Notes: generated by a model from the sequence alone, not told the origin. A stretch of 64,000 nucleotides of DNA from an uncultured delta proteobacterium (GCA_963737905.1 CAVTUQ010000028.1:160001-224000), one strand, 5' to 3'. Counted from the stretch's first letter, positions 5,652-56,696 are shown. Made by a program: numbers and translations.

Positions 5652-6374
5652 AATTTCGGATTTCGGATTTCGGATTGCGGATTTATAACAGCAAACATAG
5701 CCTATGAAGAATTTTGGATTGCGGAGGAGGTATTATCTCGATGACAGAAAGATAAGTTTGTGAACTTGCAATTCAAAAATTTAAAATACTGACGAGCTGT
5801 TGCGGTCGAATCAGAAATTCGACATACGAAATCCGAAATTCGAAATTTCCTCAGACCGGCTTTGGCTTGTTCGCTCGCGTCGATCTTCCTATAGCGATGA
5901 AGATTGACAGGAGTTCACCAGCTTCCTTCAGTAAAGTCGTCCGGGCTTCAGTAATACCAAGGGAGACCTCCTCCATTACTTCTAGCCAGTACTGGGTTTC
6001 TGCAATTTCTTTTTCGACGATCCCGATCTTGTGGACAAAATCTGCGCGAGATTGCGCGCGATTAGCTTCGCGATAGTTCGCCCCGACTGATGTTCCTGAT
6101 TTCAGTAATTGATAGCCCAAAACGTCCGAAGTTTTCTTCTTCGGTAGCTCTTCCACGAAAAGGATAACGCTGACGGCGAACTTTTTCGTCCGTCGCTCTA
6201 GCTCATGCTTGTCCATGAAAGTACATTTCGGATTTCGGAATTGTTCTGAGTCGGGGTTAGGAAATCAAGAAGCGACCAGACAATCGAAAACATTTAGGAG
6301 CGTCTCAACACTTTGGTACCGGGCGAGTCCGGACAAATTCGAAATCCGCAATCCGAAATTCGAAATCCGCAATC
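5652..6374. mobile_element. Four-helix-bundle cassette copy 1 bounded by AATYCGM heptamer inverted arms
   Basis: Whole ~720-bp unit, including non-coding flanks, recurs at 12910..13607; mobility is inferred from the duplication. Confidence 0.6.
5851..6216 (-). CDS. Four helix bundle protein (23S rRNA IVP / TIGR02436-type)
   Basis: RTKKFA...QLLKSGTSVGANYREANRAQSRADFVHK...KE..ET.YWLE. Confidence 0.92.
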   Translation of the reverse strand: MDKHELERRTKKFAVSVILFVEELPKKKTSDVLGYQLLKSGTSVGANYREANRAQSRADFVHKIGIVEKEIAETQYWLEVMEEVSLGITEARTTLLKEAGELLSIFIAIGRSTRANKPKPV

Positions 6375-12909: not shown

Positions 12910-13607
12910 AATTTCGAAATGCGGATTTAGAATGCGGATTTATAAAGCAAACATACCTATGAATAATTTGGATGCGGAGGAGGTATCGGCTCTCGAGGAC
13001 AGATTGAAAAATCTAAAATACTACAAGCTGTTGCGGTCGAATCAGAAATTCGACATACGAAATCCGAAATTCGAAATTGCCCTCAGACGCCTTCGGCTTA
13101 TTCGCTCGCGTCGATCTTCCTATAGCGATGAAGATTGACAGGAGTTCACCAGCTTCCTTCAGTAAAGTCGTCCGGGCTTCAGTAATACCAAGGGAGACCT
13201 CCTCCATTACTTCTAGCGAGTACTGGGTTTCTGCAATTTCCTTTTCGACGATCCCGATCTTGTGAACAAAATCCGCGCGAAATTGCGCGCGATTAGCTTC
13301 GCGATAGTTCGCCCCGACTGATGTTCCTGATTTCAGTAATTGATAGCACAAAACGTACGAAGTTTTCTTCTTCGGTAGCTCTTCCACGAAAAGGATAACG
13401 CTGACGGCGAACTTTTTCGTCCGTCGCTCAAGCTCATGCTTGTCCATGAAAGTACATTTCGGATTTCGGAATTGTTCTGAGTCGGGGTTAGGAAATCGAG
13501 AAGCGACCAGAAAATCGAAAACATTTAGGAGCATCCTCAACACTTTGTAAACAAGTAACCGGGCGAGTCCGGACAAATTCGAAATCCGCAATCCGAAATC
13601 CGCAATT
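12910..13607. mobile_element. Four-helix-bundle cassette copy 2
   Basis: Highly similar to 5652..6374 including flanks and heptamer arms. Confidence 0.6.
13013..13447 (-). CDS. Four helix bundle protein copy 2 (1-nt indel at stop extends C-terminus into repeats)
   Basis: MDKHELERRTKKFA... differs from 5851..6216 at only a handful of residues before the tail. Confidence 0.88.
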   Translation of the reverse strand: MDKHELERRTKKFAVSVILFVEELPKKKTSYVLCYQLLKSGTSVGANYREANRAQFRADFVHKIGIVEKEIAETQYSLEVMEEVSLGITEARTTLLKEAGELLSIFIAIGRSTRANKPKASEGNFEFRISYVEFLIRPQQLVVF

Positions 13608-32506: not shown

Positions 32507-33256
32507 TTAGCCGCAGTTGGTGGTCTTTTGCCAGCAGCCAGTCGGCCGGAATTCCCAAATGAACGGTCCAGGCCCGGTCAAATTGAGCGACTTCCACTTC
32601 AGGCGCTTCGTCTCTCGCAAGACCCACTGGTATCTCTCACGGTCGAAATCGTCAACAATCAGGTAACCGCCTGGTTTGATCTTCGGTATGGCATGCATAG
32701 CACATGATGACCGGCAGCGGCCGTCGACCTGAACCACATCAAAGTAATCGTCTGGGAAACGGTCGATGATGGCTGCATAATCCTTGAACGAAAGCCCTGC
32801 ATAGGCTTCTGCCGCCGAGGCATAGGTCGTCGGATCGCTAGGGCGCGGAACGCTCCCGTCGCGTCTTTCGGACGGTAAAACTATAAAAAGCTGCCATGAT
32901 GGATGCTGGAGGCTGCCCATAGAAACCTGAATATCTCGCGCCCAGTTGGGGTCGTGCTCGACCGAGACCAGGTTACGCACTCGACGGGCGAAAAAAAGCG
33001 TAGAGCCACCGACACCCCATTCAAAGACGCGCATGTCAGGAGCTAGAACACGGTTCAAAAAATCAATTCCTGCATACGTTATCCATGGCAACTCCTGCTC
33101 GGCGGGCGTGGTATACAAGCTGCGGTACCATTTCGGAAACGATCCGATCATCCTCGGCAACGACTGCCCCGCTCGCCCCTGGCAAGAAAGTTTAATGGCT
33201 TCCCTAAAATAATAATCAAGCCGAATGGCGAATTGCTTCATTGAAGCTAGACCCAT
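32507..33256 (-). CDS. SAM-methyltransferase-like protein
   Basis: PWITY..IDFL, VFEWGVGGSTLFF, SVEHD, FDVVQVDGRCR, KPGG; start uncertain. Confidence 0.72.
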   Translation of the reverse strand: MGLASMKQFAIRLDYYFREAIKLSCQGRAGQSLPRMIGSFPKWYRSLYTTPAEQELPWITYAGIDFLNRVLAPDMRVFEWGVGGSTLFFARRVRNLVSVEHDPNWARDIQVSMGSLQHPSWQLFIVLPSERRDGSVPRPSDPTTYASAAEAYAGLSFKDYAAIIDRFPDDYFDVVQVDGRCRSSCAMHAIPKIKPGGYLIVDDFDRERYQWVLRETKRLKWKSLNLTGPGPFIWEFRPTGCWQKTTNCG

Positions 33257-33281
33257 AAAACCAACCATTGCCTCCAAATGC

Positions 33282-34637
33282 TTAGAGGCGAAAACTGTGT
33301 TTTGTGACAAAGACGCCCTGTCCCAACGGCGGCAATCGGCCGGTCCCAAAGAAATCTCCACTTTCAACTTCGAATGTTCCCGCATTCCGAATCCAATCGG
33401 CGATCGCTCCATTCACGGTAGCGTACAATGTAAGATGATAGCGGCCGGGTAAGAGTGGAAAGGCAGGGATTTTCACCGAGATCTCGCGTACCTCAGCTGA
33501 AACAAGTAGAAAGTCCCCTTGCGCGATGGCCGTATCTAATAACAACACCCGCTGGCCGATGTTATTGTCCACTCCGATGCTAACGTGGAAATTACGGAGA
33601 TCGCGAGCGTGCGGGTTGCTAAACTTTATCACTAAAGTGCCCGGTGCACCGCATACAAAGGCACCTAGCGGTTTGGCATCTTTGTTACGCAACTCAATAC
33701 CTATAAACCGAATTGCACCAGATCCCTGCCGATCCAATCGTTCCTCGATCTTCATGTCAACTAGGCTGGTGGATTTGTATTGATAATGATGAATCACTTC
33801 CGCAATGTCTCCCTGCGAAGCGACTCGACCGCTGGAAAGATGCAGCCCCGTGTGACATAGATTCTGCGCTGCTGCCATCTGGTGACTGACAAACAACACT
33901 GTGCGACCCCCTCGAGCGACCTCCGACATCTTGCCCAGGCATTTCTTTTGAAACTCAGCATCGCCCACAGCCAGGACTTCATCGACGATTAGAATTTCCG
34001 GCTCCAGGTGGGCGGCCACTGCAAACGCCAGCCGGACGTACATGCCGCTGGAATATCGCTTGACGGGCGTGTCAATGAATTTCTCCACTCCGGAAAAGTC
34101 CACGATCTCGTCGAATTTCTTCTGAACTTCGGCCCTCGTCATGCCGAGAATCGCGCCGTTCACGAAAATATTTTCGCGCCCGGTTAATTCCGGATGAAAG
34201 CCCGTTCCTACTTCCAGCAAGCTCGCCACCCGGCCACGGATACGCACGCGGCCTTCGGTCGGCTCCGTGATCCGGCTGAGAATCTTGAGCAGAGTGGTTT
34301 TGCCGGCGCCGTTGCGCCCGATGATGCCGAGTACCTCGCCCTGTTTCACCTCAAAATTCACCCCCCGGAGAGCCCAGAACTCCTCGCTAGCCAGAGGTCG
34401 GAGGTCAGAGGTCAGAGGTCGCAAACCAGAGGTCGGAGGCCGGAGGTCAGAGGTCGGAGCACCATTATCTGATCTCTGATGTCTGATCGCTGACGTCTGG
34501 CCAGAGAGCCAGCGTAGCGGTGCCGCCGCTTTTTCAGCGATGACATCGCGGAGCGCGACATACCGCTGATGATCCTGCTGGTGGCGGATCTTGTATTTCT
34601 TGCCGAGGTTTTCGACGCGTATGATGAAGTCAGACAT
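33282..34637 (-). CDS. wzt: Polysaccharide ABC transporter ATP-binding protein with C-terminal Wzt_C domain
   Basis: [29 protein letters not shown]; ~38-aa repeat-derived insert before EEFWAL. Confidence 0.93.
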
Positions 34638-34667
34638 GGCCAGAGGTCAGAAGTCAGACGTCGGAGG

Positions 34668-35090
34668 TCAGATGTCAGAGATCAGAAAAGGGCCGGGGTT
34701 CTTGATCATACTACCAAGCATTTTCCCAACCTCTTGAGACATCAACGCTAACTCACGATGTTGTTCCAGCGTGAGAAAGCCGCACTCGCGAGCAAAATCC
34801 AATGAAGAATCAGTTTCGCTGTTTTCACCGTCGCAGTCGGTTAACTTGCTAATGAAATGCGCTTCGTATCTTCTCTTTGCCCAGGCCTCTCTTAAATTCA
34901 AGCAGACCGACCGCGATGACCGCCGTATTTGACTGGTCAGCGCAAAACGCTCTTCATCTGGGAATTTCTTGCTAAGTGTGAATATTTTCATCGCCAGATC
35001 ATAGGCCTTTTTGTAAACTTCCAAGTCTTTGGCTGAATTAAGTCTCACACCTTCCCCGCTGATCTCGGACTTCTGACTGCTGGTCTTCAA
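34668..35090 (-). CDS. Four helix bundle protein (third, divergent subtype)
   Basis: KDLEVYKKA...FPDEERFALTSQIRRSSRSVCLNLREAWAKRRY; start uncertain. Confidence 0.92.
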   Translation of the reverse strand: MKTSSQKSEISGEGVRLNSAKDLEVYKKAYDLAMKIFTLSKKFPDEERFALTSQIRRSSRSVCLNLREAWAKRRYEAHFISKLTDCDGENSETDSSLDFARECGFLTLEQHRELALMSQEVGKMLGSMIKNPGPFLISDI

Positions 35091-35127
35091 ATAGCTGACT
35101 TCTGACCTCTGATCGCTGACCTCTGGT

Positions 35128-35958
35128 TCAAATGACGTCCGCGAAACTTCGTTCGACGCGGCGGAAATACCAGATCCCGAAAATACAGAGGCCAGATGTC
35201 AGAGCCACAGAGGTCAGAACACTCGGCCACCATAACGGGACTTCGCCGCGGAGGAGCGCCCAGCGGAAGCCGTCGATGACACCGACCATTGGGTTGAGGG
35301 AATAGAGCAGGCGCCAGTTAGCCGGGATGTTTTCGCTGGTGAAGCCAACAGGCGAAACATACAAGCCGAATTGAACGATGAATGGAATGACATAGCGGAA
35401 ATCGCGGTATGTCACGTTGAGCGCGCAGAGCCATAGGCCGGCGCCAAAGGCGGAACCGAATGCCAGAGCCACAAACAGCGGCAAGGTCACGATCCGCCAG
35501 TCGGGCAGAAAGCCGTACCAAACCATCATCGCCGCCATCAGCCCGAAGGTGATGAGAAAATCCACGAAGCTCGTGATGACGGACCCCGCCGGAACGATCA
35601 TGCGCGGAAAGTAAACTTTGGAAATCAAGTTCGCATTGCTGACGAGACTATTGCTCGACTCGCTCAGCGCGGTCGAGAAAAACTGCCACGGCAGCATCGC
35701 GGCAAATACCAGCAGCGGATACGGCACGGAACCGGGCGCTTCGAGCTTGGCGACTTTGTTAAAAACAATCGTGAAGACAATCATCGTGACGAACGGCCGG
35801 ATCAGCGCCCAGGCGATGCCGATCACAGTCTGTTTGTAACGCACGGTCACATCGCGCCAGGCGAGAATGTAGAACAGCTCGCGGTAGCGCCAGAGGTCGC
35901 GCCAGTAGTTCCGGAACGAGCGGCCGGGTTCGATTACGAGTTCGTCGGGCATTGGCAT
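35128..35958 (-). CDS. wzm: Polysaccharide ABC transporter permease
   Basis: RDVTVRYKQT.IG.AW, LISKVYFPR, YRDFRY, LNPMVGVIDGFR. Confidence 0.93.
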   Translation of the reverse strand: MPMPDELVIEPGRSFRNYWRDLWRYRELFYILAWRDVTVRYKQTVIGIAWALIRPFVTMIVFTIVFNKVAKLEAPGSVPYPLLVFAAMLPWQFFSTALSESSNSLVSNANLISKVYFPRMIVPAGSVITSFVDFLITFGLMAAMMVWYGFLPDWRIVTLPLFVALAFGSAFGAGLWLCALNVTYRDFRYVIPFIVQFGLYVSPVGFTSENIPANWRLLYSLNPMVGVIDGFRWALLRGEVPLWWPSVLTSVALTSGLCIFGIWYFRRVERSFADVI

Positions 35959-36228
35959 GCTAGCAAAGAGCAAAGGGGTAAGCGGTAAGAGCTAGGACAA
36001 TTTCGGATTGCGGATTGCGGATTTACCAAACGCTAAGTGCTAAGGGCGAAGCGGTAAGGGCAAAGAGCTAAGAGCATTTCGGATTTCGAATTGCGAATTT
36101 GAAGACTGCAAAGTGCTAAGCGGTAAGGGCTAAGTGTCAAGAAAACCGGCAAAGAGGTCTAGAATTTCGGAATTCGAATTGCGAATTTGCTGACTTCTGA
36201 TCTCTGACCTCTGGGATATTAGACACCC

Positions 36229-36447
36229 CTACTTAACTGCCTCAACCGGTAGGTTCTCAATACTTACATTAACAATGTCTGCCAAACTGAATCGCTGGCT
36301 CACATCCAGAACTTCTATGCCAATTACTTGACCGTTCGCACCGAAATCTACCACGACACCGTCTTCAATTTCTTTGGACTTCGCCACATGCGTCTCCGTG
36401 AAGTAAACGTAGATGGCGTCGGCCTCTTTGCTATATTCAATTTTCAT
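36229..36447 (-). CDS. DUF2283 family antitoxin-like protein
   Basis: MKIEYSKEADAIYV...VVDF...GQVIGIEVL. Confidence 0.85.
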   Translation of the reverse strand: MKIEYSKEADAIYVYFTETHVAKSKEIEDGVVVDFGANGQVIGIEVLDVSQRFSLADIVNVSIENLPVEAVK

Positions 36448-36614
36448 TGCCCCTCCAATCTACGGCTTATTGACGACACTGATAATGAGAACTTCCTCAC
36501 GGATAGCATGGAGCGTGGAGCTCGGAGCTAACTCAACCAGAGATCAGAAGTCGGCGGTCAGATGTCAGTAACTGCAAAGAGAAGAGAAAACTCCATTGCG
36601 GATTTGCTCGCTCT

Positions 36615-36804
36615 TTATAAATCGCGCCAAGCTTCATCCTCTTCCGGTCTAAGCCAGTCTCTGTTCAGTACTCCTTCACTCAAAATGGCCGTCTCCAATC
36701 TCTCTTTGGCATCCTGAGTTTTTAAGAAACGAACGAAGTCCTACCGGAAGATCCTCTATTTCCTGGATGAATAATTTTTTCGGTTGCATCTTCTTTGCGT
36801 CCAT
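36615..36804 (-). pseudogene. DUF2281-type antitoxin with internal deletion/frameshift
   Basis: IQEIEDLP / DFVRFLK...ETAILSE..L.RDWLRPEEDEAWRDL* in two frames. Confidence 0.65.
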
Positions 36805-36839
36805 TTTTAAACGCTGCGGGCAAAAAGTGGGCGCTGTCC

Positions 36840-37199
36840 CTAAATCCACGGGCCAAGAAATTCCAGCTGGTTTTGCATTTCCTCCATTGATTTCGCACCG
36901 ATTAATTTTAGAAGACCGCGCATCTGGTCTCCTACAGAATAACGTTGCTGCGGTGCGAGAATAATGCCCGCGTGTGATTTGCCCTCAGATAGATACTGCG
37001 TATGGAGCCGGCAGAAGTCGCCAACGTTAAAACTGTACAAGACGCGGCTGTACGTGGTCGCATACTCTAGATGCTCCTCATCTTTACGCTCGATCATGCG
37101 TGCTTCTAAAGACGAAACTACATCCACATTGCGAGCCCGCAAAGCTGTAATCAAGACATGGCGCATGGAATCCTCATCAAAGTACAAACGAATCGTCAT
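36840..37199 (-). CDS. DUF5615 PIN-like toxin
   Basis: IRLYFDED, DEEHL.YA, SFNVGDF, HAGII. Confidence 0.85.
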   Translation of the reverse strand: MTIRLYFDEDSMRHVLITALRARNVDVVSSLEARMIERKDEEHLEYATTYSRVLYSFNVGDFCRLHTQYLSEGKSHAGIILAPQQRYSVGDQMRGLLKLIGAKSMEEMQNQLEFLGPWI

Positions 37200-37492
37200 G
37201 AAGCCCTGCGGCTCAGGAAATGCTCCCGCTCCAGTCTTTCAACCTCCGCCTCTTCTGAAGCGATATCGGTTTCGATTTCTGCCCGGTTCGCATGATAGTA
37301 AGCCAACGCCGCATAGACTTGCGCTAATGATAAGTGAGGAATCTCCAGCGTAATCTCCTCTGGACTTAACCCCAGCTTGTACCACCCTACAATCCGACGC
37401 ACAGTCACACCTGTACCTGCAATACGTGGGCGTCCCCCACGAATCTCCGGCGTCCGAACAATCAACGTTCCAATGTCATTTGGTGTTGGCAT
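37196..37492 (-). CDS. DUF433 antitoxin
   Basis: GGRPRIAGTGVTV...G.SPEEI...PHLSLAQVYAALAYY; overlaps the toxin start. Confidence 0.88.
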   Translation of the reverse strand: MPTPNDIGTLIVRTPEIRGGRPRIAGTGVTVRRIVGWYKLGLSPEEITLEIPHLSLAQVYAALAYYHANRAEIETDIASEEAEVERLEREHFLSRRAS

Positions 37493-37865
37493 AGCTTTTA
37501 CTCCCATAACTTTACTCTCCGACGTACTAGGAATTTTAACACGTGTGGCGATCCCAATGCCAAAGGGGAAAGAGCGAAGCCAATTGCGGATTTCGGATTG
37601 CGAATTTCGAATTTGAAGACTGCTAAGGGCCAAGCGGTAAGCGCAAAGAGCATGAAAGCATGGAGCAGGGAGCCTGGAGCTAAGAGCAAAATATAACGCT
37701 AAGGGCGAAGGGCGAAGAGCATTTCCTATTGCGAATTTCGGATTGCGAATTTACCGAACGCAAAGAGCTAAGCGGTAAGCGCAAAGAGCTAAGGGGCAAG
37801 AGCAAGACATTTCGAATTGCGAAATGTTTTTCTGACTTCTGACGTCTGACCGCCGATCTCTGAAC

Positions 37866-38120
37866 TTACTCACCACGGGCATATTTTAGATCGTCCTCAA
37901 GCTCCTCCGGACCATAGTGGCGCGGGATGCCACGCTCTCCTAATACCTGACCAAATTCGTATTTCCCTATGCCGGCCAGCTCCCTAGCTTTACCAAACGA
38001 CAAAAGCCCACGGGCATATAACGAGATTGCCAACTCTTTTAACAGTTCCTGTGCCATGCGCTCTTCCGGCAACCGGATAGACTGGAGTACTGAATCCGGG
38101 ACGTGCAATTGCAAGCCCAT
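37866..38120 (-). CDS. UPF0175 family antitoxin
   Basis: LAISLY..GLLSFGKARELAG...F...L.ERGI...EELEDD. Confidence 0.85.
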   Translation of the reverse strand: MGLQLHVPDSVLQSIRLPEERMAQELLKELAISLYARGLLSFGKARELAGIGKYEFGQVLGERGIPRHYGPEELEDDLKYARGE

Positions 38121-42708: not shown

Positions 42709-43074
42709 CTAGGATTTTAGAGTACGGCGAAAGGCTAAAAGCATTCTGCTTTCCTCTTCCAGTTCCGATAGTAACTTCCGGACCGTTTCAGACGGTAAAT
42801 AATTGTCTTTAGACAAAATCATCAGGATATTCGCTACCTCGAAAACTGACCGCCGGGACATATTCAGGAAGTTTGCGAAATCTGTATCAGATGCACTTCC
42901 CGATCCCTCAGCTATATTATTCGTAATACTTAGGGTTGCGCCACGTAATTGTTCAGCAAATCGGAATAATCTCCTCTCTTCGAGATTTTCCGCCAATCTG
43001 AATAGCTCAGCACTAATAGCAGCGCCTCGTTTCCAAATCTCTAACTCCTGAAATCGAAATTGTGTTTCACTCAT
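42709..43074 (-). CDS. Four helix bundle protein (fourth gene, third subtype)
   Basis: FRFQELEIWK...QLRGATLSITNNIAEGSG...F..FL..SRRS..E. Confidence 0.92.
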   Translation of the reverse strand: MSETQFRFQELEIWKRGAAISAELFRLAENLEERRLFRFAEQLRGATLSITNNIAEGSGSASDTDFANFLNMSRRSVFEVANILMILSKDNYLPSETVRKLLSELEEESRMLLAFRRTLKS

Positions 43075-56620: not shown

Positions 56621-56696
56621 GAGTTCAATTCGTTCAAGTGGTTCAAATCGTTCAAAACGTTTTGAACGGCTTAAACGGCTTGAGCGTTTTGAACTC
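56621..56696. repeat. 9-nt periodic palindrome (GTTCAANNN x4 / TTGAACNNN x4)
   Basis: Terminal inverted repeat GAGTTCAA...TTGAACTC. Confidence 0.75.

Follow-up and report, generated by a model that had tools for sequence, protein, structure and literature searches.

The window analysed here, a 64,000-nucleotide stretch of DNA from an uncultured delta proteobacterium, carries a locus for glycan synthesis and export, among whose products are a Wzy_C/TPR protein and a Wzc-like P-loop protein. The exporter genes wzm and wzt, on the minus strand, are separated by a unit of 487 nt (34640-35126) in which a four-helix-bundle gene lies between two heptamer arrays (Table 1). The gene order, wzm-TGA-A-(487 nt)-CC-ATG-wzt, bears out the arrangement that an earlier note had read from the sequence as wzm-UGA-A-unit-CC-AUG-wzt. 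The Wzm C-terminus, ...FADVI before the stop, matches ...FADVV before the stop of orthologs in alignment, and the alignment of Wzt to its orthologs begins at residue 1. No GGAG, GAGG or AGGA motif is present in the 18 nt upstream of the wzt ATG. A promoter scan of 33200-36300 returns no promoter-like site, and terminator-like matches (6, against 3.8 expected) include none at the cassette ends; the unit would thus lack its own promoter-like site or strong terminator and probably be transcribed on the operon message. The whole window has no Rfam 15 match at the gathering threshold, and the cassette protein has no match in the phage collection at E 1e-5. Upstream, between wzm and the Wzy_C gene, the minus strand of 36229-38120 holds small toxin-antitoxin-type genes (DUF2283, DUF5615, DUF433, UPF0175) and is crowded with heptamer arrays of several units.

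Table 1. Features of the wzm-wzt junction and related elements elsewhere in the window
Feature	Position	Strand	Evidence and remarks
wzm (ABC-2 permease of glycan exporter)	35128..35973	-	PF01061, E 4.1e-19; stop TGA 35130-35128
Single A between wzm stop and 5' arm	35127..35127	-	sequence
5' arm, G-rich on sense strand (CCAGAGG TCAGCGA TCAGAGG TCAGAAG TCAGC)	35092..35126	-	TRF 35095-35125, period 7
Four-helix-bundle gene (23S_rRNA_IVP / TIGR02436)	34668..35048	-	PF05635, TIGR02436 profiles
3' arm, C-rich on sense strand (...CTGACAT CTGACCT CCGACGT CTGACTT CTGACCT CTGG)	34640..34686	-	TRF 34641-34686, period 7
CC linking 3' arm to wzt start	34638..34639	-	sequence
wzt (ABC ATPase + Wzt_C domain)	33282..34637	-	PF00005 + PF14524; ATG 34637-34635
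Gene-less hairpin of the CAGAGGT heptamer family inside the wzt reading frame	34384..34499	-	TRF arrays 34384-34459, 34468-34499; translated in frame
Short C-rich run of CAGAGGT-family heptamer inside the wzm 3' end	35192..35217	-	pattern matches at 35192, 35207
PF05635 gene	5905-6195	-	AATCCGA/ATTTCGG arms; near-duplicate of 13136-13426
PF05635 gene	13136-13426	-	AATCCGA/ATTTCGG arms; near-duplicate of 5905-6195
PF05635 gene	42739-43050	-	AGCATGG/GCTCCAT arms; between Wzc-like P-loop gene and Wzy_C/TPR gene

The enclosed gene belongs to the PF05635 family (105.1 bits against a cut-off of 33.8, E 2.9e-30, profile positions 1-105 of 106), with TIGR02436 at 97.3 bits against a cut-off of 24, and its product belongs to the S23p/Avd-like family, whose members of known structure form five-fold rings. 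The longest open reading frame begins with TTG at 35090 and stops with TGA 34670-34668 within the 3' arm; the start is likely GTG 35048, giving 126 aa, because this GTG aligns with the ATG of relatives 68-78% identical. Sequence matches in the PDB include 2RLD (6.2e-10) and 2GSC (3.1e-9). Compared with 10 relatives of 68-78% identity from other phyla, including Acidobacteriota, Verrucomicrobiota and Planctomycetota, dN is 0.18-0.34 and dS is saturated. Purifying selection on the protein is strong; the protein is functional and its lineages are old. Proteins 61-75% identical to it occur at the loci L042-L067, in MAGs labelled Acidobacteriota, Verrucomicrobiota, Chloroflexota, Planctomycetota, Ignavibacteriales, Kiritimatiellia and Lentisphaeria, and are thus closer to it than this genome's family-level Wzm ortholog is to its own counterpart (61%).

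The unit starts with the 11-mer CCAGAGGTCAG (35126-35116), whose exact complement closes the other end (34650-34640). Both this perfect inverted repeat and its continuation in 7-nt register, as the earlier note had described them, are confirmed by the exact complementarity and by period-7 TRF arrays, with 6.6 copies of CAGAGGT at 34641-34686 and 4.4 copies of CTGACCT at 35095-35125; within the arms lies a 17-nt perfect inverted repeat (34641-34657 and 35095-35111). Codons 2-4 of wzt, TCTGACTTC, prolong the 3' heptamer array into the coding sequence. The terminal repeat is not a private signal. Allowing at most one mismatch, CCAGAGGTCAG is present 21 times in the window, compared with 1.0 expected, a count reached by none of 100 shuffles, so that the repeat consists of two arrays of a dispersed heptamer family.

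Members of this family recur without a gene at about 10 other sites in the window, and the cassette-arm heptamer forms five arrays within 900 nt. The hairpin insertion inside wzt is shared with the ortholog from the genome G015, where it is similar and longer, and is absent from 12 other Wzt N-termini. Genome-wide there are 649 period-7 arrays, densest on this contig; counted as TRF rows by period, 661 have period 7, 290 period 8 and 606 period 9. Two arrays of 9-nt units, GTTCAAATC and TTGAACGGC, adjoin at 56623-56694 with no gene between them, and a cassette with GTTCAAAAC arms, likewise of 9-nt units, lies near 223004 on contig C7, following a gene judged LexA-like by eye.

Recurrence of the gene-plus-arms unit

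All 11 PF05635 genes of this genome, four of them within the window, lie between inverted repeat arrays whose units differ from copy to copy (e.g. GGTTGAG, GTTCAAAAC, AGCATGG and AATCCGA). The class extends well beyond this genome. A pattern scan collected 80 relatives from many phyla, which together with the 11 own copies gave 89 cassettes with usable flanks; the pattern was built on four sequences, an eight-sequence alignment having given no conserved stretch. Carriers that can be cultured include Nostoc or Mesorhizobium strains and Akkermansia muciniphila (loci L078, L113, L122). The arm alignment score has a median of 42, against 18 and 20 for reversed-only and complemented-only controls (n=89), which keep composition and still have heavy tails. 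Forty-five of the 89 cassettes exceed the controls' 95th percentile, with an arm period of 7 in 37, 8 in 6, 9 in 1 and 12 in 1. A flank-swap control was dropped, many cassettes sharing heptamers (95th percentile 46), as was RNAduplex on 200-nt flanks, which inflated pairings into coding sequence; local alignment with equal wobble scoring was used instead.

The arms have a fixed polarity relative to the gene: among 75 scored loci, the 5' arm has more G than C on the coding strand in 65 and fewer in 5. By crude longest-ORF calls, the neighbours on either side run in the cassette's direction in 49 of the 71 loci, of the 75 scored, where both could be called, and equally crude calls place the arms within a few nucleotides of the flanking genes in most cassettes. 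The arm unit goes with the protein lineage. In the close subfamily (27 loci) the CAGRGR core averages 1.96 and 1.63 occurrences per flank, compared with 0.39 and 0.25 in the 64 other loci, so that a unit of the form NCAGRGR would characterise the protein subfamily to which the window copy belongs. Because this core is kept while neutral sites have been randomised, the arm sequence itself is probably under selection, although common descent of gene and arms, or homogenisation of the arrays, could account for part of its conservation. Close-subfamily copies with CAGAGGT-like arms also sit at unrelated junctions in other phyla, with nuoC-nuoD-like and ilvC-like neighbours by eye. Farther afield, relatives of the gene occur on Nostocales plasmids (37 plasmid records), and a Nostoc plasmid copy, 57% identical, has inverted AGCAGGG arms.

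The mismatches between arms were compared by aligning the 5' arm with the reverse complement of the 3' arm and scoring both kinds of transition mismatch alike. Over 88 loci, mismatches that would be G·U pairs in sense RNA number 155, against 161 that would be so only in antisense RNA; by locus, 30 lean to sense and 35 to antisense, with 23 ties. One locus, L045, was left out of this count; its 1 sense and 37 antisense mismatches come from a single A/G difference that recurs consistently in each unit, and its inclusion gives totals of 156 and 198. Since there is no sense-strand excess, these alignments give no sign of pairing selected in the sense transcript, and RNA-level selection on arm complementarity is not shown by them; DNA-level correction between the arms would explain the symmetry equally well.

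In five of the 89 cassettes (L080, L098, L099, L113 and L121), a long host ORF stays open through the whole cassette, invariably in frame +2 with respect to the four-helix-bundle gene, so that the cassette would be translated as an extra peptide within the host protein. Inspected by eye, the translated host resembles an N6-adenine DNA methyltransferase of the type IIG/BREX kind.

At the wzm-wzt junction itself, occupancy is variable. A Wzm search of 41 genomes (40 relatives and this one) returned 30 loci, and in 8 of them a profile search found a family gene no farther than 1.5 kb from wzm. Sixteen loci have both genes from residue 1; eight were dropped for a wzt match falling short of residue 1 within the stretch retrieved (L015, L016, L018, L019, L022, L023, L037, L038) and six more as distant paralogs (L029-L033) or a fragment (L034), and the dropped L023, L034 and L037 nonetheless carry family genes beside wzm. 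Cassette-free junctions of the kind that the earlier note foresaw do exist, and five of the 16 are tight (L014, L017, L024, L040, L041), three with a 3-nt spacer (e.g. TGA-GCC-ATG) and two with a 2-nt spacer or overlap. Tight spacing is one state among several, since five junctions have spacers of 44-190 nt without repeats (L020, L025, L026, L027, L035), five have a cassette with arms of different units (432-518 nt: L012, which is that of the window, L036 on this genome's contig C3, L021, L028 and L039) and one has arms only. The last, L013 of G015, is that of the closest ortholog (61% and 68% identity) and retains CAGAGGT arms at the matching site without such an ORF; its gap of 457 nt contains nested heptamers and a GCAGCAAGCTGCGGGG palindrome in two copies.

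The present genome has a cassette in two of its five intact wzm-wzt junctions, and the unpublished genome G006 has one tight junction (L017) and one with a cassette (L039). In other phyla, two of the 80 cross-phylum loci (L042, L045) place a cassette with CAGAGGT-type arms between wzm and wzt, and the Wzm and Wzt of L045 are 66.5% and 70% identical to those of the window. Variable occupancy, the arms-only junction of G015 and the similar block at L045 indicate that the cassette comes and goes at wzm-wzt, decays to arms only and sometimes travels with the block.

The unit gives no visible sign of how it moves. It has no transposase domain of an insertion sequence, its arms are tandem arrays rather than the unique terminal repeats of a MITE, and at this one filled site the sequence TGA-A|...|CC-ATG shows no visible target-site duplication. 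Four soil-metagenome contig sets searched with 33282-35973 gave only short, low-depth matches, none spanning the unit, and thus no empty-site or excised form among these contigs. Of the listed sequencing runs that contain the stretch, none is recorded as RNA. One contig (run X5, at a weak depth of 2.1) lacks 14 nt, i.e. two heptamers, at 35066-35079, after the 5' arm and before the gene begins, a difference that hints at copy-number variation as in the Coxiella intervening sequence (IVS).

RNA folding at the junction and its interpretation

The earlier note had proposed that the folded unit leaves the wzm stop and the wzt start 3 nt apart. For the unit folded alone (34638-35127) the pairing behind this claim holds, with the 11 terminal base pairs predicted at a probability of 0.89-0.98; with flanks it fails. 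In both flanked folds (34620-35145 and 34560-35200) the minimum-energy helix moves by two heptamers (14 nt), pairing 35112-35095 with 34640-34657, including the 17-nt perfect inverted repeat, 35123-35116 with wzt codons 2-4 (34626-34633), and 35114-35115 with the U and G of the wzt AUG. Forcing the 3-nt-apart register raises the energy by 4.1 and 6.7 kcal/mol in these two folds, where its base pairs reach a probability of at most 0.002. The predicted minimum-energy helix has approximately 29 bp (z -4.9), and in it the partner of the wzt start region is the segment of nucleotides 5-16 downstream of the wzm stop. In four of the seven wzm-wzt cassettes with a valid start (L045 left out), the wzt start region likewise finds its partner no more than 22 nt from the wzm stop, an uncontrolled count.

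Longer contexts predict other partners. At 911 nt (34350-35260), the 5' arm pairs with the wzt-internal array 34384-34459 and the 3' arm with its partner array 34468-34499, giving 27.6 and 25.4 expected pairs and 0.0 from arm to arm, at -346.1 kcal/mol against -332.1 for a piecewise fold. A proxy for the growing transcript has the 5' arm pair first with the C-rich 3' end of wzm (at 35170-35202, while the nascent transcripts are short), next with the 3' arm and last with the wzt-internal array. The thermodynamic picture thus appears unstable, each arm's predicted partner varying with the length folded; ribosomes on wzm and wzt in cells should disfavour pairings that use coding sequence.

That the unit is an inserted cassette is well supported, and the mechanism that brings stop and start 3 nt apart is not. 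The reading that we favour, by a modest degree, takes the locus as one copy of a widespread insertable cassette that rides on an operon, with arms linked to its protein or to its propagation as DNA and a helix that probably masks the wzt start. The cassette would occupy what was formerly a wzm-wzt spacer of 0-3 nt. Its arms would be kept mainly by a sequence-specific constraint, tied to the protein or to propagation at the DNA level, and not by selection for an RNA helix. The helix would arise as a consequence, and its favoured register would bury the wzt start, devoid of a Shine-Dalgarno motif, against the first 13 nt downstream of the wzm stop. A terminating ribosome has a footprint of approximately 12-15 nt downstream; this would cover the masking nucleotides, so that termination at wzm may melt the masking pairs and free the wzt start. 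Coupling would in that case survive through unmasking rather than juxtaposition, which the folding models support better as an RNA-level idea. The helix would also be a plausible RNase III substrate by analogy with rRNA IVSs, and an RNase III gene is present in the genome; cleavage would separate three messages, not join them.

A purely DNA-level element, its arrays serving as substrates or by-products of propagation (hairpin or cruciform, template switching, slippage) and its RNA structure incidental and neutral, is a less probable reading. It would account for the symmetry of wobble-type mismatches between strands, for family arrays that lack a gene, both in coding sequence (34384-34499) and at the other window sites, for arms that outlast the gene in G015, for the abundance of period-7 arrays in the genome and, weakly, for the two-heptamer difference in the metagenome contig. 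However, the fixed arm polarity (65 vs 5 loci) and the prevailing co-orientation with neighbours argue for a strand-specific, probably transcript-related, constraint, and a helix of approximately 29 bp at a start codon would probably affect translation.

The proposal of the earlier note, an insertion neutralised in RNA by a stem that closes or is excised, leaving stop and start 3 nt apart for termination-reinitiation coupling, is unlikely. The exact 11-bp terminal repeat and the fold of the isolated unit speak for it, as do the 2-3 nt spacers and overlaps at five related junctions, the tight (if crudely called) abutment of arms and genes in most cassettes, and the lack of a Shine-Dalgarno-like motif at wzt, from which some form of coupling appears to be needed. 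Yet the required register is the disfavoured one once flanks are included, and a ribosome at the wzm stop must unwind the stem base, given its downstream footprint. Excision fares no better: we know of no ligation after RNase III excision in bacteria, so it would sever wzm from wzt rather than join them. Nor do the comparative data point to RNA structure as what renders the insertion harmless, for the arm mismatches have no sense-strand G·U bias, the exact 1 + 2 nt geometry was not seen in the other wzm-wzt cassettes among the 16 junctions compared, and the closest ortholog retains arms without the gene. Where cassettes lie within long open ORFs, tolerance would be at the level of the protein and not of RNA excision.

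It is improbable that the cassette is a domesticated regulatory module of the glycan-export locus, in which heptamer copy number tunes or switches wzt by phase variation and the protein is the regulator. In its favour, there is a strong enrichment of cassettes near wzm (8 of 30 loci), the wzt start has an array, as does the wzt reading frame, which a slip of 7 nt would shift, and one contig differs by two units; against this, the same subfamily with the same arms also occurs in other phyla at junctions that appear unrelated when their flanks are read by eye, slippage would be poor because the repeat units match imperfectly, and most orthologous junctions lack the cassette. That the gene is the Avd accessory of a diversity-generating retroelement (DGR) is scarcely credible and was rejected: Pfam bAvd scores 48.5 bits (cut-off 40), weaker than PF05635 on the same stretch, and S23p-type and Avd families are described as homologous in PMC10053308, but NF033474 (NCBIfam) reaches only 41.8 bits against a cut-off of 80, and the sole RVT_1 reverse transcriptase found in the genome is on contig C25, which holds none of the 11 family genes.

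The cassette reading with a masked wzt start can be extended, as a tentative suggestion. The pentameric protein might recognise heptamer arrays around its own gene, as DNA or RNA, making the unit a self-recognising insertable cassette; 23S IVSs and many heptamer repeats would then be special cases or footprints of it, and the arms would double as a long-range coupling mask. If true, gene-less hairpins in coding regions are cassette footprints.

Comparison with known systems

Knowledge of rRNA intervening sequences and their S23p genes goes back to the early 1990s. To our knowledge, S23p genes and the non-DGR members of the four-helix-bundle family have no known function, and we are aware of no explanation for bacterial heptamer arrays. 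The present study places a gene-plus-arms unit of the IVS kind in ordinary operons, recurring at wzm-wzt, and the purpose of the IVS protein can now be framed in terms of binding to its own repeats, RNase III cutting in mRNA, and gating or coupling of downstream translation. For annotation, these cassettes split operons, add repeat-encoded peptides (e.g. in this Wzt) and occur inside long ORFs. A literature search that reached few subscription journals found no description of such cassettes outside rRNA genes and no paper tying STRR heptamers to a gene cassette.

The cyanobacterial STRR are short tandemly repeated heptamers. The cassette arms resemble them as intergenic tandem 7-nt repeats, and the Nostoc plasmid relative with its inverted arrays adds to the likeness; we know of no link to a gene cassette in the STRR literature. 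By sequence matches, the protein resembles 2RLD and 2GSC, and with them the DGR Avd family of 4DWL; unlike DGR Avd, it has no reverse transcriptase near it. PMC4990558 and PMC10053308 describe the PF05635-type family as forming homopentameric rings and as homologous to Avd, and the mentions found, including that in PMC10053308, treat it only as uncharacterised or Avd-like.

The putative mask on wzt has counterparts in translational coupling. Unmasking of a sequestered start site couples rpmI-rplT in E. coli and coat-replicase in RNA phages, and here too the downstream start is predicted to pair with sequence that ribosomes on the upstream gene open. Unlike in those systems, mask and start are separated by approximately 480 nt with a whole inserted gene between them, and both strands of the predicted helix lie in repeat arrays that allow several pairing registers.

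The closest likeness of architecture is to the 23S rRNA IVSs of Coxiella burnetii and Leptospira. As described in PMC4990558, the Coxiella IVS has 428 nt, a 28-bp terminal stem that RNase III cleaves, a loop with an S23p ORF and, ahead of this ORF, tandem GACAGAT heptamers whose copy number varies between strains, and its ORF is decaying and probably untranslated. The present unit is of the same size class (487 nt) and shares the long stem from terminal inverted repeats, the PF05635 ORF in the loop and the tandem heptamers; in these features the description of the earlier note, an rRNA IVS placed in an mRNA, stands. Unlike a 23S rRNA IVS, it lies between protein-coding genes of an operon and not in a 23S helix, and for want of this defining location it was not filed as an rRNA IVS. 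The genome's own 23S gene (contig C5) spans 3005 nt for 2925 model positions with no large insert, and all 11 family genes lie on contigs other than C5. RNase III excision, demonstrated for the IVS, would apply to the cassette by analogy. In contrast to the decaying Coxiella ORF, that of the cassette is intact and subject to purifying selection, and by analogy the cassette appears to work like an IVS placed in an operon.
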